Assembly: GCA_964445745.1 (NCBI GenBank)
Contig: CAYULU010000005.1
Span: 211-64,210, forward strand
DNA from: an uncultured bacterium
Lineage (GTDB): Bacteria > Omnitrophota > Omnitrophia > Omnitrophales > Aquincolibacteriaceae
Direction of reading: 5' to 3'
DNA length: 64,000 nucleotides
Shown here: positions 29,024-35,735 of the stretch, piece after piece
Position numbering within the stretch: position 1 is the stretch's first letter
How the letters are laid out: each line of letters opens with the position of its first letter
Notes under the pieces: model-generated
Database searches by the model: none
What the model was told of the DNA's origin: nothing
What the model saw: only the letters and a program-made list of their open reading frames with translations
Made by a program: the position numbers and the translations under genes

Positions 29024-30601
29024 ATGAAACTTAAAAATATAATAACCTCCTTTTTGGCGTGTGCGTTTGCCTTGTGTTACTCTTCCTCATTTGCGACCGC
29101 CGGTATCCTCGTTCCTGAAGCCGATTCCGCTGAAGCTGTTTCCCAACCTAATTTATTTGCCCAGAACTTCTACATGCCCTCGGGTCAAAAACTTGATCAG
29201 AAGATCACTGAAATAAGGGGATTCCCGATCGTCAAGACACATTCCCGTCCTCAGAATTCGGAATACTCAATCGTGACGGATTTCGGAGGCAATGCCTTTC
29301 GATCCCGCTTTCTCCCCGGGTTAAAAGATCCTAAGGCGATCGACGATTACATCAAAAAAAATCTCCAGGTTGCAAATTTTAATGGTGTCGAGGTCCGGAA
29401 GCTTGCGATCCCTCTTGCGGATGGACAAGTGACGGACATGTTCTGGGTAGGAGACAAGGCTTTTCCTTCGGCAGAACAGGCGACAACTGAGGTTTCCAGG
29501 GTCAAGGCTTTAATCGAATCCCAGGGAGGCGATTTTGGGGTAAGCGTCCGTGAAATTCCCGTATTTGTTGCGCCCGAGCAACCGGAACCGGTCAAGACCC
29601 AGGCCCAATTCAAAAAAGAGGAGGAACTGATCCTCAAGTTCACGGATCAACTTGATATTGGGGAAAAAATGTGGGGGCCTTTTCAGGGAGAAGGATCCGG
29701 TGAACCGGTTCTTTGGCAGTCATTTGGGGAAACTACTTATCGGATGACCAATCTTGAAAACAGGAATTTTAACAGTCAGGTGGGGTACTGGTCGAACCGC
29801 CTTGTCTTCAAGGGATTTCGTTTTCCGTTAAATACGATTGAGCCCTTTGTGGAAGAGACGACGAGTATTGAGGCGGTGGGCGCCGATTACAAAAGCCATT
29901 TTGACCTTTTTGCCGGTTTACAGTGGTATCCGCTCTTGAGAAATCCGTGGCTCTATAATTTCCGTCCGTTTGGGTGGGATATCCCGCTCCTTGAGTGGAT
30001 CCGTAATTACAAGTTTTACATCAAGTATGGCAACCGCTACAACATCAAGGACCAAATTGAAAACGCGAAGGACTATGATCTGATCGCTGGTGTTCAAATT
30101 TTTTATGAATGGGGTACTGATCTTCCTTCGCTCACGGAAGGGAAACCCGAACGTTTTGCGGACTACCTGCGGCAGTATGTCTGGGGAGAATATTTTGGAG
30201 ATTATCGTTGGGAGAAAACCAATTTTGGATCCGAAGAAGATTTTAACGCTTATATTCTGAATTCTTCGGTCATCATGGGCATTAAACTTCCCGGGATCCC
30301 GATCCCTCACAACCCGATTAATGATGAAATCGTTCTTATGCCTTACCTTCGTTTCGAGCATGTGAATAATTGCGAGTTTTCATTTCCTTATCAAAACCGG
30401 TATTTTCTTGCCCCGGGAATTCGTTGGATGCCGTTCAGGGCTTATCGCTGGAAAGAGGATGAATGGCTTTCCAAGATGGCTATTTTTGGGGAATGGCTCG
30501 CAATCGGAAAAGTCCAGAACGCGAAGCAGGATGGCGAGGCGCCGGATGCGGTGCGCTATGATCTTCGGTTCGGAGTTAAATTTTCTCACAGGCGGTTTTA
30601 A
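29024..30601 (+). CDS. Secreted protein with an aromatic-rich, beta-barrel-like C-terminal half (putative outer-membrane protein)
   Basis: 525 aa. The signal peptide is MKLKNIITSFLACAFALCYSSSFATAG. The C-terminal half is rich in W/Y/F/G/N and ends ...RFGVKFSHRRF, a terminal Phe typical of BAM substrates. Its stop abuts the next start (TAAATG). Confidence 0.5.
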   Translation: MKLKNIITSFLACAFALCYSSSFATAGILVPEADSAEAVSQPNLFAQNFYMPSGQKLDQKITEIRGFPIVKTHSRPQNSEYSIVTDFGGNAFRSRFLPGLKDPKAIDDYIKKNLQVANFNGVEVRKLAIPLADGQVTDMFWVGDKAFPSAEQATTEVSRVKALIESQGGDFGVSVREIPVFVAPEQPEPVKTQAQFKKEEELILKFTDQLDIGEKMWGPFQGEGSGEPVLWQSFGETTYRMTNLENRNFNSQVGYWSNRLVFKGFRFPLNTIEPFVEETTSIEAVGADYKSHFDLFAGLQWYPLLRNPWLYNFRPFGWDIPLLEWIRNYKFYIKYGNRYNIKDQIENAKDYDLIAGVQIFYEWGTDLPSLTEGKPERFADYLRQYVWGEYFGDYRWEKTNFGSEEDFNAYILNSSVIMGIKLPGIPIPHNPINDEIVLMPYLRFEHVNNCEFSFPYQNRYFLAPGIRWMPFRAYRWKEDEWLSKMAIFGEWLAIGKVQNAKQDGEAPDAVRYDLRFGVKFSHRRF

Positions 30602-33600
30602 ATGATGACACACGCCACACGCCACATGCCCGACAAGACAACACCTCGGCTCTGTATCGCCGCGTGGCTTTGTGGCTTCTTGCTTTTTTGTGCTTTTACG
30701 CCTTCCGTCTTTGCCAATGTCCTGGGTAATCCGGATTTCGAACAGCCGTTAGGGGATGGAACGCAAAGTAATTGGGCTAATAACACCAGCACATCGAATT
30801 TGGTTGCCAAAATGGGACGATGGGATGGTGTGAATAATCCGGCTGGATTGTCTGCCGGATTTGCAGTCCCACGTAATAGTTCCTATGCCCTTTACTTACA
30901 GGCTTACTACAATGCTCCTCCCGCCTTCTATGAAAGCACTTTTACCTTTCAGGCTTACAACAATGTGAAACCGGGTGACTACGTGACTTTTTCAGGTTAC
31001 GCCCAGTCGGATATTAAAGCGGCTGATACCGGGGGAAGAATGAAAATCGAGTTTGAGGATGCCTCCGGCGCCAAGATTGGAAGTCCGGTTCAAACCGGAA
31101 AGATTACGATTGCGACTGCCCCGCGAGGAGCTTGGACTTTTTTTTCATTAACGGCGACCGCCCCTGAGAACGTTTCTAAGGTTGTTTTTGTTTTGGATGC
31201 TAACGGCATTATGGATGGCGCTGTACCCCAATTCGGTAACATCCTGTACGACGGTCTTAATGCGGAGGTTAATCCTGCTAAACTTACTGTTGCGGCATCG
31301 AAGCGCAGTGTGAAAAAAGGAGACGCGATTGGAATTAATGCCCATTTCGCCAATGCGTCGGGAAATACGTTTACCAATTCAAATATGCGAATCAAGTTTC
31401 CCAATGGTTTTGATCATGCACAGGATTCAATACGGGTGAACGGTCAGAAAGTCGCGGGTCAGGAAGGATCCCTCATCATTCCTCTGGGCACCATTACTCC
31501 GGGCACGACTTATGATGTTACGTTTGCAACATTAGTGACGAGTGGGGTGCAGTTGGGGAAAACCTATTCTCTGGAAGTTTCGGTTGAAGGGGGCGGCGGC
31601 GCTTTGTCGGAAACCGCTCACGTTCAATTTACGATCCGGGGAGATCCGATCTTTGATGAAGGCACAATTATCGGGAAAGTTTTCAATGATTTGAACCAGG
31701 ATGGAGTTCAGCAGTGCGGTGAGCCGGGGGTGCCTTGGGTCACTCTCTATACGGAAGAAGGCATCAAGATTGTAACGGATGAATTTGGCCGCTACCATAT
31801 TCCAGGCGTCTCTCCGGGCCGGCATCTCGTAAAGATTGACGGACATACGCTTCCCGAGGGGACAAAATTTATTACGGAAGAAACCTATCTTGTCAAGATT
31901 ACGCCGGGCATTATGGGAAAAGCGAGTTTTGCGGTTCTTCTCCCGCCTTCGGGGATTCCTGAATCATTCAAGAATGACCTCATGGTGATGATCACCCAGG
32001 GGGCTGATATTTCGCGTCCCAATCTGGATATCGTGATGGAACCTTCGGTCTTAAAACTGGGAGTTGGATTACTTGAGAAAGAACCCTTGTTCAAGTTTGA
32101 CAGCAATTACGCCGGTTTCGTTAAGAAGTGGACTCTTGAAATTCGTGATGAGATGGGGGTGCCGGTCTGGAAGGGTTTTGGTGTGGGACAGCCGCCTCCT
32201 GAGATGACCTGGAACGGAAAGACTGAAAACGGGCTCATGCTCAAGCCCGGGATTTATTCTTATCAATTAAAGATCCGCGATTCTAAAAATCGAGAAGACT
32301 GGACCCCGCTCAAATTCTTTGAGGTCTATAACAAGCTGGATGAAAGAGCGGCAAAAAATTACCAGACAGAAATTCCCTCGGTGGGTGATTTCAATTTATT
32401 TAAAGACGGGAAGCGTAGTATTCCGTTGATTGCAAAACCGACCGTCCGGATCCAGGGAAAGACCAAGCCTGATCACGAAATTAAAATCAACGAAATTCCG
32501 GTGAGTGTGGATCCTGAAACGGGCATGTTTCAAAAAGAGTTTTATGTTGAACCGGGTGAGCGGGAGTTTACGATTTCTGCCACGAGCGCGACAGGAGAAA
32601 GCACAAGTTATCAGGAAAAAGTTCAGGTTAAGGACAGCACTTTTTTTATGGTGGCGCTTGGGGAGGAACAGCTCGGGGTCAATTTTTCGAAAGGGGCCAT
32701 GGAGGCGGCGGATACCGATGCTTATCGCGACGGGTTTACGGAAGAAGGTCGCTTTTCGTATTACCTCAAGGCCAAGCTTAAAGGAAAATTTCTTGTAAAG
32801 TCCCACTATGATACGTCGGATCGCCGTTCGGCGCTTTTTACCAATCTTGATCCGAATGAATATTATCCGATTTACGGTGATGGTTCATCGCGTGACTACG
32901 AGGCCCAGGACACTGCCCAGAGGCTTTTTGTCCTCGTGGAGATGGACAAGTCTTTTTTGAAATGGGGAACCTTCAAAACCGAATTCACGGATACGGAACT
33001 TGCCTCTTACAACCGAACGCTTTCGGGTCTGAAACTCAGCTTTGACACGGTGGCGAGTACCATTTACGGTGACCCGAAACGGGGATTTAAACTCTTTTGG
33101 ACTGAATCGGGAAAACAGGCTGATCACAATGAGTTTTATGCCACCGGTGGATCGCTTTATTACACACGTCAGCGTAATGTCCTGGAAGGAAGTGAGAAAA
33201 TTCGTGTTGAGATTCGCGACAAGATTACCGGAATGGTTCTCTCAAGTTACGATATGACCGAGGGGGCCGATTATGAGATCAATTACGGGGAAGGGCGGAT
33301 CTTTCTCTCCAGGCCGCTCTCTTCCGTTGCGGCAACCGACTCCCTTGTAACGGCGGATATTATGGACGGTAACCCGGTTTATCTCATTGTGGATTACGAA
33401 TATGAACCGTCGTCTTCGGATTTGCCTGAAATCAATAACCGTGGAATTCGCGGTTATACCTGGGCGGGTGATCATGTAAGGTTTGGCGCGACTGCGGTAG
33501 AAGAAAAACGCACGGGCGGGCAGGATTACGATTTGCGCGGAGTCGACATGATGCTGAAATTCGGCCGTAATACGCAGATCACCGCTGAATACGCGACCAG

Positions 33601-35323: not shown

Positions 35324-35342
35324 CGAAGGAAACGGAGATTGA

Positions 35343-35735
35343 ATGATGCGAACTATCGGGATGATTTTGATGAGCGCTTTTTTTTGTTTTCATTTTTCAG
35401 GTTGTGCGACGGTTGAAAAAATGCTTCCACTTCACGATGAAGTTCTTGTTTACGAATTGCCTCTGGATCTGACGTATCTAAGAACAACGGAGGCAATGGA
35501 AACCTTGCCGGGGTGGATCATTGAATCGACTGACAAGGAGAAGGGGATCATCGCCGCCCGCAACATTGAATACAGCCGATTGGATGACTCGGATACGCGG
35601 ACGGTGACAGTGCTTGTGGAACGGGTTGACCGGACCCATACGTCGGTTACTTTAGCTCCTGAATCTCAGCGGAGTTTGTCCGGCGGGGATATGATGAAAG
35701 CTATCGACACGATGTTGAGTGCCGAGCTCAAATAG
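35343..35735 (+). CDS. Small lipoprotein (unknown function)
   Basis: 130 aa. The signal peptide has a lipobox (FFCFHFSGC). It lies immediately downstream of the 1573-aa gene. Confidence 0.55.
   Translation: MMRTIGMILMSAFFCFHFSGCATVEKMLPLHDEVLVYELPLDLTYLRTTEAMETLPGWIIESTDKEKGIIAARNIEYSRLDDSDTRTVTVLVERVDRTHTSVTLAPESQRSLSGGDMMKAIDTMLSAELK

Follow-up and report, generated by a model that had tools for sequence, protein, structure and literature searches.

A predicted outer-membrane gene trio with a giant beta-barrel protein, conserved across the uncultured phylum Omnitrophota

In the 64-kb window (the whole stretch of DNA that we analyzed, which comes from Omnitrophota), three adjacent genes are predicted to encode an unannotated set of outer-membrane proteins that is conserved across the uncultured phylum Omnitrophota. 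The large protein of this trio ends in an 885-aa module, which, judging from profile searches, defines a large unannotated family. Our preferred explanation, to which we give a probability of roughly 45%, is that the trio forms a conserved Omnitrophota outer-membrane complex: a giant barrel with a periplasmic Ig-like stalk that reaches the cell wall, which would also be a plugged channel, and two partner proteins. The features of the three genes, and of two relatives of gene 2, are listed in Table 1.

Table 1. Coordinates of the features of the trio and of two relatives of gene 2.
Feature	Residues	Nucleotides	Strand	Basis or remark
Gene 1		29024..30601	+	525 aa; partner outer-membrane protein (predicted); ORF list
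Gene 1 signal peptide	~1-24		+	by inspection: MKLKNIITSFLACAFALCYSSSFA, followed by T
Gene 1 N-terminal alpha/beta domain	~60-170	29201-29533	+	AlphaFold2
Gene 1 linker, poorly predicted	180-222		+	AlphaFold2
Gene 1 C-terminal barrel, ~12 strands	229-525	29708-30598	+	AlphaFold2; ends ...SHRRF
Gene 2		30602..35323	+	1573 aa; giant-barrel protein (predicted); ORF list
Gene 2 signal peptide	1-38	30602..30715	+	by inspection: ...LCIAAWLCGFLLFCAFTPSVFA, followed by N; predicted cleavage after VFA
Beta-sandwich "head", CBM4/9-like but unconfirmed	39-226	30716..31279	+	CBM_4_9, E = 0.082; PDB 1gui (CBM4), E = 1.4
DUF11-like Ig domain	227-345	31280..31636	+	alignment to paralog P0261
SdrD B-like Ig domain	346-447	31637..31942	+	Pfam SdrD_B
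FlgD-Ig-like domain	~470-575	32009..32326	+	Pfam FlgD_ig
Membrane-proximal Ig domain, Glucodextran_B-like	611-688	32432..32665	+	Pfam; AlphaFold2 strands
Giant-barrel module	689-1573 (885 aa)	32666..35320	+	AlphaFold2 DSSP, Foldseek, profile; ends ...VRMTGKF
YYPIYGD motif	754-760	32861..32881	+	most invariant motif of the family (alignment A1)
Small inserted beta domain	~852-911	33155..33334	+	after the ~7th barrel strand; GSEKIRVEIRD...DYEINYGEGRIFLSRPLSS
Gene 3		35343..35735	+	130 aa; lipoprotein; ORF list
Relative P0461	SdrD_B 50-104; FlgD_ig 214-273; OmpA 308-402; Ig 598-664; module 698-1544			
Relative P0423	OmpA 97-200; module 470-1363			

The three open reading frames and the TAAATG at which gene 1 stops and gene 2 starts (within ...TTTTAAATGATG...) are exactly as described in the initial annotation, which placed them at 29024-35735; all three are on the same strand. 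Gene 3 begins 19 nt after gene 2 and has a GGAG-type ribosome-binding site. The trio is conserved in related genomes. All 50 orthologous loci that could be tested for the partner gene (gene 1) have it upstream of the large gene, and of the 63 that could be tested for the lipoprotein gene, 54 have it downstream. The lipoprotein had been suggested as a possible partner, and its conserved position fits this role. In Omnitrophota loci, the block has a fixed order, dapF-dapA-dapB / trio / uvrA / ftsH, and this synteny persists down to 41% identity. The window also encodes a 4805-aa protein.

The AlphaFold2 model of the gene 1 protein (pLDDT 82.6) has about 12 barrel strands, and its Foldseek matches are outer-membrane barrels of 12-16 strands (TM of 0.45 or below), which is consistent with its earlier description as barrel-like. 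The 204 homologs of gene 1 are, where the source is named, nearly all from Omnitrophota or Omnitrophica. The gene 3 protein has the lipobox FSGC, and its Cys21 (nucleotides 35403-35405) is present in at least 90% of 34 orthologs; gene 3 orthologs are 26-61% identical. Searches of Pfam, NCBIfam, and PDB sequences named no family for either protein. Signal peptides had been noted on the first two proteins, and both are visible by inspection; the AFAN motif at the gene 2 cleavage site is conserved in alignments of orthologs. Both proteins also end in Phe, as had been noted, and the endings are conserved: R524 of gene 1 is nearly invariant (alignment A2), and in gene 2, G982 and K983 are invariant and F984 is nearly so (alignment A1, fragment numbering).

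The C-terminal region of gene 2 had been taken for a barrel far larger than those of autotransporters, and our results point the same way. AlphaFold2 predicts a meander of about 40 long beta-strands across residues 689-1573; the model, of a 984-residue fragment, has a pLDDT of 72 and a pTM of 0.68. The best Foldseek matches to the giant module are all outer-membrane barrels (FptA, SlpA, LptD, and SprA), with SlpA at ranks 2, 4, and 7 (8ae1, 7zgx, and 8agd), but this is a generic resemblance with TM-scores of only 0.1-0.3 (target-normalized TM of 0.30 or below). The pTM and the Foldseek matches suggest a barrel-type fold and not a soluble one. Together, the models support the prediction that the products of genes 1 and 2 are outer-membrane beta-barrel proteins. 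The large protein had been called unplaceable in any described class, and this stands: the giant module has no family match in Pfam, NCBIfam, or PDB sequences. The region had also been called rich in Tyr, Gly, Asp, and Asn. This is true of Tyr (7.3% versus 3.1% in the N-terminal part) and Asp (7.3% versus 4.9%), but not of Gly or Asn, which are not enriched in the C-terminal region.

The 195 homologs of gene 2 are mostly full-length (~1530-1600 aa), are 40-80% identical to it, and are all from Omnitrophota where the source is named. Aromatic residues at the C-terminus are kept across the giant-module family. In the YYPIYGD motif, Y165, Y166, P167, Y169, G170, and D171 (A1 numbering) are invariant, and they are conserved in the paralogs as well; the motif lies in a low-confidence loop (pLDDT under 50 for fragment residues 151-182). 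The sequence of the inserted beta domain, for which AlphaFold2 predicts short strands at fragment residues 263-313, is strongly conserved in both orthologs and paralogs. This domain is a candidate plug or cap. Coevolution backs the pairing of strands that are neighbors in the sequence into hairpins (p = 2.6e-16).

Of the modules that the initial annotation assigned to the N-terminal arm, the SdrD_B and FlgD-Ig-like domains are partly backed by Pfam: SdrD_B matches residues 359-423 (E = 1.6e-6, 28.7 bits, below the cut-off of 29.7), and FlgD_ig matches residues 497-557 (E = 1.4e-4), with PF13860 recorded for several orthologs. The A1 profile also matches SdrD chain 10ps_A at 5.5e-9, and the SdrD_B domain contains a DxNxDG-type motif (FNDLNQDG, residues 361-368). 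DUF11 is recognized only via the paralog P0261. By BLASTP, residues 227-1573 of gene 2 align to residues 1561-2887 of P0261 at 33% identity, and residues 1561-1669 of P0261 match Pfam DUF11 (E = 1.6e-11); the core that is shared with paralogs starts at residue 227 of gene 2. For the CBM-like head, the E-values reach only 0.08 and 1.4. The Glucodextran_B-like Ig domain was found at residues 611-676 of gene 2 (E = 0.05) and in the relatives P0249, P0461, and P0465 (E = 6e-10 to 5e-13). Its AlphaFold2 strands span fragment residues 25-99, and its last strand, FFMVALGE, runs into the barrel module. The length of the arm is fixed among the gene 2 orthologs. The mean majority-residue frequency is 0.67-0.76 in the arm versus 0.66 in the barrel; the SdrD B-like domain is the most conserved block of the protein (0.76), and the head is the least conserved (0.52).

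To view the large protein as a one-off mosaic was an understatement, as it is a phylum-wide ortholog within a family of thousands. With a profile of the giant module, 3,410 clusters (50% identity) are recovered at E ≤ 1e-3. These proteins range from 450 to 7612 aa and include members from metagenome-assembled genomes labeled as several other phyla. Their C-terminal beta-domain is conserved and their N-terminus is variable: in paralogs, the stretch before the module is Ig-like or repetitive and reaches ~6,700 aa, with Big_6, DUF11, SdrD_B, CarboxypepD_reg, and BNR_assoc_N domains. In five family members, an OmpA domain (PF00691) lies inside the N-terminal Ig-like arm, always N-terminal to the module, with no membrane crossing between the OmpA and Ig domains. 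These are P0461 and P0423, along with P0322, P0478, and P0465, which have the same domain order. Some members of the family are annotated by NCBI as "OmpA family protein."

Peptidoglycan binding by OmpA-like domains takes place in the periplasm, so the presence of OmpA in the same Ig-like arm of five relatives would place the arm there. Surface adhesins are usually more variable than this arm, which is as conserved as the barrel. These two observations argue for a periplasmic stalk, as in a SlpA/OmpM-like connector and channel, and against the "adhesin" label of the initial annotation. The fixed length of gene 2, its 40-80% full-length identity, and the synteny with dap genes and uvrA give it a housekeeping character.

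We propose that the 885-aa module would insert the protein into the outer membrane as a very large, ~40-strand beta-barrel. The Ig-like chain (DUF11, SdrD_B, FlgD-Ig-like, and Ig) and the beta-sandwich head would project into the periplasm, forming a rigid stalk that reaches the cell wall, so that the protein would tie the outer membrane to the underlying envelope and double as a large plugged channel. Deinococcus SlpA and OmpM fill both roles with another kind of stalk. We infer that the head binds the cell wall and that the three proteins associate physically: the 525-aa protein, with its periplasmic alpha/beta domain and ~12-strand barrel, and the lipoprotein would join the big barrel as partners in fixed stoichiometry, docking onto it or gating it. 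Several observations count against this proposal. With Pfam, we found no OmpA or SLH domain in gene 2 itself, and its head is only weakly CBM-like, which weakens the case for cell-wall binding. The argument for orientation comes from relatives at ~30% identity in other phyla. SdrD_B and DUF11 domains typically occur in surface proteins, the ~6,700-aa arms of paralogs are hard to fit in the periplasm and look more like an exported passenger, and 9 of the 63 testable loci lack the lipoprotein.

The adhesin view of the initial annotation corresponds to an autotransporter-like (type V-like) surface protein: the giant barrel would export and anchor its own Ig-like and CBM-like passenger, which would pass through the barrel and be presented at the surface as an adhesin. 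The family, with proteins of 450-7612 aa, shows the hallmark of such systems: its C-terminal beta-domain is conserved while the N-terminus varies. The domains in the paralogs' arms and the calcium-binding-type motif in the SdrD_B domain also fit, and a wide barrel could let folded domains through. We nevertheless consider this unlikely, given the OmpA domains in the same arm, the fixed length and barrel-like conservation of the orthologs' arm, and the location of the ortholog in a housekeeping block. Also, gene 2 has no match to Pfam's Autotransporter, and no helix plug is predicted in the model of the giant module.

Somewhat less likely is a dedicated outer-membrane translocon, with the giant barrel as the conduit. 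The lipoprotein would plug it, and the 12-strand protein would be its partner, as a shuttle or at a lateral gate. This arrangement would follow the logic of SprA-PorV-Plug or LptD-LptE, whose three-part make-up the trio mirrors; LptD and SprA are among the top Foldseek matches, and the set is conserved phylum-wide. The translocon would carry large secreted or envelope material, such as the giant proteins with signal peptides that are characteristic of Omnitrophota. Omnitrophota do encode many very long proteins, most of which have a signal peptide or membrane segment (10.64898/2026.06.07.730766), and the 4805-aa protein in the window is an example. Against this, gene 2 has no sequence match to the SprA, PorV, LptD, LptE, usher, or secretin families, the TM-scores are only 0.1-0.3, and the loci examined for synteny contain no secretion ATPase or other machinery linked to the cluster. 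Paralogs have the barrel and neither partner, which suggests that the barrel itself anchors and does not serve as a shared conduit. The least probable reading is that a single chain folds into at least two smaller barrels in the C-terminal module and acts as an ordinary anchor or porin, with the three genes being mere neighbors that form no complex. Predictions often yield multi-barrel chains (PMC8346858), the module superimposes poorly on every single-barrel template, and we found no coevolution signal between the first and last strands. One ladder that links distant strands (fragment residues 335-345 and 707-715) scores within the highest 0.7% of pairs that are not adjacent, but long-range ladders are dominated by indel-prone loops and hence are uninformative. 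Sub-barrels of 22, 26, or 30 strands should give high target-normalized TM, instead of 0.30 or below, and the pTM of 0.68 across 984 residues argues for one defined assembly. That genes 1 and 2 abut, and that their synteny holds in 50 of 50 loci, speaks for a functional unit.

Among known systems, type Va and type Ve (intimin/invasin) autotransporters also carry Ig-like or repeat domains on the same chain as a beta-barrel, with a variable N-terminus on a conserved beta-domain. They have 12 strands instead of the ~40 predicted here, gene 2 has no match to Autotransporter or IAT_beta in Pfam, and the OmpA domains of relatives would put the Ig-like arm in the periplasm. SprA of type 9 secretion, a 36-strand barrel, is the largest solved (PDB 8gl8 and 8gl6). 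In its translocon, as predicted for the trio, a giant single-chain barrel is accompanied by a smaller one and by a small protein with an occluding or accessory role. In contrast to gene 2, SprA lacks an N-terminal Ig-like stalk of this kind; there is no detectable homology (query-normalized TM of 0.15-0.16), and no other components of type 9 secretion are near the trio. LptD-LptE likewise joins a large barrel (26 strands for LptD) to a small lipoprotein, and LptD has a periplasmic beta domain N-terminal to its barrel, but the trio has no Pfam match to OstA_N, LptD, or LptE (TM of 0.30 or below), and the periplasmic part of gene 2 would be a run of Ig-like domains instead of the Lpt beta-jellyroll. 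In the OmpA family, an 8-strand barrel and a periplasmic peptidoglycan-binding domain (OmpA_C) are joined in one chain. The order is reversed in the relatives of gene 2, where OmpA is N-terminal to the barrel; also, gene 2 itself lacks OmpA, and its predicted barrel is about five times larger.

Solan et al. (2021) described a superfamily of outer-membrane barrels with 38 and 40 predicted strands (families 002 and 003; PMC8346858). Comparing by description only, these are also single-chain barrels that are predicted from sequence to be larger than any solved, with about the same strand count, although a stalk, partners, and a link to Omnitrophota are absent from the description. SlpA of Deinococcus radiodurans and the SlpA-like/OmpM proteins connect the outer membrane to peptidoglycan (PMC9388160; PMC10628300). 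SlpA has no detectable sequence similarity to gene 2 (TM of only ~0.23), and gene 2 differs in having a stalk of Ig-like beta-domains without an SLH domain or coiled coil, more predicted strands (~40 versus 30), and a dedicated 12-strand partner gene. The overall plan would be alike: an N-terminal part that reaches the wall through the periplasm is followed by a large C-terminal outer-membrane barrel, which spans a similar length in SlpA (residues 254-1167; PMC9388160; PMC10628300). SlpA also has an accessory lipoprotein (DR_0644; PMC9388160), its structures are among the best Foldseek matches to gene 2, and relatives of gene 2 carry a peptidoglycan-binding domain in their N-terminal part.

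The three ORFs of the cluster proposed in the initial annotation are all on the + strand (see the table), and the first two abut, with the junction TAAATG. The lipoprotein gene (gene 3) starts 19 nt past gene 2 and is preceded by a ribosome-binding site of the GGAG type; uvrA begins 18 nt beyond gene 3. The C-termini that had been noted, ...SHRRF for the 525-aa partner protein (gene 1) and ...MTGKF for the giant-barrel protein (gene 2), are correct, and each ending is conserved within its own family. The signal peptides are recognizable by eye in the sequences, as is the lipobox FSGC of gene 3, whose Cys21 is kept in at least 90% of 34 orthologs. 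A consensus scan for promoter-like and terminator-like sites gave counts that were not above those from shuffled sequence, so the trio seems to belong to a single long block of co-directional genes.

Genes of the trio, and domain order in relatives of gene 2 that carry an OmpA domain (residue numbers)
Feature	Position	Strand	Basis or domain order
Gene 1, 525 aa	29024..30601	+	ORF
Gene 2, 1573 aa	30602..35323	+	ORF
Gene 3, 130-aa lipoprotein	35343..35735	+	ORF
P0461			SdrD_B 50-104, FlgD_ig 214-273, OmpA 308-402, Glucodextran_B-like Ig 598-664, module 698-1544
P0423			end of SdrD_B-like domain, OmpA 97-200, module from 470
P0322, P0478, P0465			as in P0461/P0423 (OmpA before module)

Near the start of the window, the GC skew changes sign at ~5500-6500 (negative before ~6 kb and positive after), and gene orientation flips there too. 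This switch may mark a replication origin or may just be coding-strand bias. For the ORF at 2065-3468 (-), we found no relative in PDB, so it is not recognizably DnaA.

The locus is widely conserved. We found 195 homologs of the large protein and 204 of the 525-aa protein, and where named, nearly all are from Candidatus Omnitrophota/Omnitrophica. Most homologs of the large protein cover its full length (about 1530-1600 aa) and share 40-80% identity. Scanning the genomes of species representatives yielded 80 loci, whose six-frame ORFs we searched with profiles of all three proteins. The partner gene is directly upstream in 50/50 testable orthologous loci, and the lipoprotein gene is downstream in 54 of 63, which supports the earlier suggestion that the lipoprotein is a partner. 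The gene order dapF-dapA-dapB / trio / uvrA / small ORF / ftsH is preserved down to 41% identity. The trio locus is phylum-wide and housekeeping-style, and is not an island.

The partner protein is about 445 to 885 aa long, depending on the ortholog (for instance, 7277-9934 in locus L001 on JACKFM010000001.1), whereas the large protein keeps a fixed length. Between a lysA-like decarboxylase (23853-25034) and dapF, the window encodes a membrane protein of 397 aa that has a DUF3592 domain (25040-26233, +); in L001 and in L003, another Omnitrophota locus, a PilZ gene is upstream of dapF in its place. Two ORFs have no Pfam match: one of 189 aa after uvrA (38534-39103, +) and one of 464 aa after ftsH (40991-42385, +). 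Other Omnitrophota contigs have similar-sized unannotated genes at these positions.

Scans of all three proteins against Pfam and NCBIfam found no family that reached threshold. Member-by-member Pfam scans of the alignments of the partner, the lipoprotein, and the N-terminal head domain of gene 2 gave none above threshold either, and the SdrD B domain was the sole match from PDB sequence profile searches. We also considered whether the partner might be a fragment of the giant barrel, and rejected this (profile-profile probability of 0.1%).

We built a profile (A3) from the C-terminal 885 aa of gene 2. Gene 2 itself scores 1608 bits over positions 1-883, including the YYPIYGD motif and the C-terminal aromatic residue. 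Among clusters defined as 50%-identity representatives, A3 hit 3,410 at E ≤ 1e-3 and 1,622 at E ≤ 1e-30. The initial annotation had recognized an unusual barrel protein, and the family proves to be much larger than could be seen from this sequence. The module lies at or near the C-terminus of proteins of 450-7612 aa, and one member of 954 aa is the barrel module alone. Besides Omnitrophota, members come from metagenome-assembled genomes (MAGs) labeled as Deltaproteobacteria, Gammaproteobacteria (e.g., uncultured Cocleimonas), Thermodesulfovibrionia, Ca. Polarisedimenticolia, or Planctomycetes. Those that have an annotation are called "hypothetical", "outer membrane beta-barrel protein", "DUF11 domain-containing protein", or "OmpA family protein".

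By BLASTP, gene 2 is homologous to a 2887-aa paralog from residue 227 to its end (33% identity), so the conserved core is DUF11-SdrD_B-Ig-Ig-barrel. Paralogs at ~30% identity, which are mostly from Omnitrophota-labeled MAGs, have neither partner gene adjoining. This includes L073, L081, L082, and L083, which also have a tail of ~130 aa past the barrel; three of these four tails have weak matches to TPR, and that of L081 has none. The window contains no giant-barrel paralog. It does encode a 4805-aa protein (48662-63079, +) that has Big_13, Big_3_2, and Big_7 Ig-like domains and an RHS repeat, without the module; this is a typical very long Omnitrophota protein. A TPR ORF (63076-63960, +) overlaps its stop codon.

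Structure prediction gave barrel-type folds for both large proteins. The AlphaFold2 model of gene 1 (pLDDT 82.6) has an N-terminal alpha/beta domain at about residues 60-170, a disordered linker, and ~12 long strands at 229-524. Foldseek gave generic matches to 12- to 16-strand outer-membrane barrels, with target-normalized TM of 0.45 or less. For residues 590-1573 of gene 2 (pLDDT 72, pTM 0.68), the model has one Ig-like domain and then ~40 long strands, across the 885 aa of the module and up to the C-terminal Phe, with a small beta domain inserted past roughly strand 7. Two conserved loops are modeled at low confidence. One of these contains YYPIYGD (residues 754-760), which is the most invariant motif of the giant-barrel family and is conserved in both orthologs and paralogs. 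Foldseek ranks only large outer-membrane barrels at the top (FptA, Deinococcus SlpA, LptD, and SprA), and at TM of just 0.1-0.3. We read the module as a predicted barrel-type fold without a close solved relative. Given the predicted strand count and the lack of any family match in Pfam, NCBIfam, or PDB sequences, the proposal of a novel large barrel architecture is supported.

Coevolution, as an independent test, is consistent with the predicted strand order. Using mean-field direct coupling analysis (DCA) with a reduced alphabet on 306 family sequences, antiparallel ladders score higher between adjacent strands than between non-adjacent ones (medians of 0.114 vs. 0.051, Mann-Whitney p = 2.6e-16). 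This supports a beta-meander, in which sequence-adjacent strands pair as hairpins. Individually, 14 of 39 adjacent pairs are above the 95th percentile of the non-adjacent pairs; long-range ladders track indel-prone loops, and the DCA lacks the power either to demonstrate closure or to rule out multiple barrels.

Two other envelope proteins are encoded in the window. A clear FadL/TodX-family outer-membrane transporter (46705-48096, -; Toluene_X, E = 4.6e-45) shows that the organism also has conventional outer-membrane barrels. An 853-aa protein (9215-11776, +) has sub-threshold matches to AsmA/YhdP (E of about 1e-6 to 4e-7) and may be an envelope lipid-transport bridge protein.

Which side of the membrane is the Ig-like arm of gene 2 on? 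The initial annotation described gene 2 as an adhesin plus a barrel. In five members of the family, Pfam identifies an OmpA domain, which in every case precedes the module and lies among the same Ig-like domains. OmpA-like domains bind peptidoglycan and are periplasmic. In these relatives, no segment that could cross the membrane separates the OmpA domain from the Ig domains beside it, so the whole arm should be periplasmic. By homology, the simplest reading is that the arm of gene 2 is periplasmic as well. Arm length is constant across the phylum, and most of the arm is at least as conserved as the barrel: mean conservation is 0.76 for SdrD_B, 0.67 for the FlgD-Ig-like domain, and 0.70 for the membrane-proximal Ig, vs. 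0.66 for the barrel. The exceptions are the head (0.52) and the DUF11 domain (0.56), which are less conserved. Fixed length and barrel-level conservation fit a periplasmic arm, and together with the OmpA domains, they do not bear out the adhesin reading. The head is at best weakly similar to CBM4/9 (Pfam E = 0.08; E = 1.4 to a CBM4 structure), and one idea is that it binds a glycan such as peptidoglycan.

The function we infer for the trio is that of an outer-membrane complex. Its main subunit would be a very large barrel whose Ig-domain stalk is periplasmic, with the 12-strand protein and the lipoprotein bound to it as partners, and the complex would work like SlpA/OmpM, as connector and channel at once. 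This explanation as a whole is tentative; we give it a probability of roughly 0.45. Alternatively, the variable N-termini of the paralogs might point to an autotransporter-like display system. For the ortholog in the window, we think this is unlikely, given the OmpA evidence and the conservation of the arm. The OmpA domains of the relatives also argue, indirectly, against the arm being a passenger that is exported through or beside its own barrel.

The three-part composition makes a translocon like SprA/PorV/Plug or LptD/LptE attractive, but nothing links the trio to a cargo or to such machinery, and we find this more doubtful than display. A chain of several barrels, with genes that are merely neighbors, seems more improbable again; abutting genes and 50/50 synteny make "mere neighbors" unlikely. 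The most speculative proposal, and to us a long shot, is that a single closed barrel of ~40 strands, the 12-strand partner, and the lipoprotein form a phylum-specific translocon parallel to SprA-PorV-Plug. It would export the exceptionally long signal-peptide proteins of Omnitrophota, and the thousands of paralogs would be cargo fused to their own copy of the conduit.

Omnitrophota are widespread, ultra-small, and mostly uncultured, and their envelope is essentially undescribed. The trio is one of the few phylum-conserved envelope features in this group. It is unannotated in Pfam and NCBIfam, and the literature on Omnitrophota, as far as it is searchable, does not describe the trio or the giant-barrel family. 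If the ~40-strand barrel is real, it exceeds the largest solved barrel (SprA, with 36 strands), and a module family of several thousand sequence clusters would provide a concrete and plentiful system in which to study BAM assembly of barrels of this size. If the arm is a periplasmic stalk that reaches the wall, as in the connector-and-channel explanation, it would be a third kind of outer-membrane tether, beside Lpp/Pal/OmpA and the SLH-based OmpM/SlpA, and would bear on the evolution of the diderm envelope. For annotation, DUF11/SdrD_B proteins that carry the module should not be considered adhesins by default. So far, the giant-barrel proteins are a family of unassigned function, rather than a demonstrated new mechanism, and they would repay structural work.

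Among known systems, classical (type Va) autotransporters have 12-strand barrels, and Pfam's Autotransporter family (PF03797) is absent from gene 2 at E ≤ 1; as initially proposed, the predicted barrel is far larger. The initial annotation was also right that the polarity is opposite to intimin/invasin (type Ve). In those proteins, the barrel precedes the Ig-like passenger, whereas in gene 2 the Ig-like domains (227-688) precede the barrel (689-1573), and there is no Pfam match to IAT_beta. TonB-dependent receptors have a plug and a 22-strand barrel (TonB_dep_Rec), which has no Pfam match in gene 2. The match to CarboxypepD_reg is weak (E = 0.09), and Foldseek TM to FptA, FhuA, and BtuB is at most 0.27. 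Ushers (PapC/FimD) have a 24-strand barrel with a mid-barrel plug, which the small beta domain of gene 2 may resemble by analogy only; gene 2 has no Pfam match to Usher, and no usher appears in the top 50 Foldseek matches of the module. OstA_N, LptD, and LptE are absent from all three proteins (Pfam at E ≤ 1, and NCBIfam), and the lipoprotein profile has no match in PDB or Pfam. Unlike five of its relatives, gene 2 lacks the OmpA domain (PF00691).

SlpA/OmpM offer a close likeness. In SlpA, a wall-binding part at the N-terminus is followed by a stalk and a barrel of 30 strands (residues 254-1167), and DR_0644 serves as its accessory lipoprotein (PMC9388160). Gene 2 is likewise predicted, by AlphaFold2 and Foldseek, to have a C-terminal outer-membrane barrel. 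In SlpA/OmpM, an N-terminal SLH domain binds the cell wall; gene 2 has no SLH match (Pfam, NCBIfam), and in the giant-barrel family, OmpA domains carried by relatives may have this role. The central stalk of SlpA/OmpM is a coiled coil. Residues 227-688 of gene 2 match Ig-like families, and residues 25-99 of the fragment model, which begins at residue 590, are predicted to be beta. Without an SLH domain or a sequence match, we consider the analogy to SlpA to be close in layout, and not homology.

SprA is described as the largest barrel known, at 36 strands (10.64898/2026.03.07.710327). Gene 2 has no match to it in Pfam, NCBIfam, or PDB sequences, and the query-normalized TM from Foldseek is 0.15-0.16. 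From contact maps, Solan et al. (PMC8346858) predicted single barrels of 38 and 40 strands that form one superfamily. What is new here is an unannotated family (which may or may not coincide with families 002/003 of Solan et al.), a probably different stalk, dedicated partners, and possibly a record-sized barrel. In kind, gene 2 belongs with what is already known, namely outer-membrane barrel proteins whose N-terminal part lies in the periplasm.
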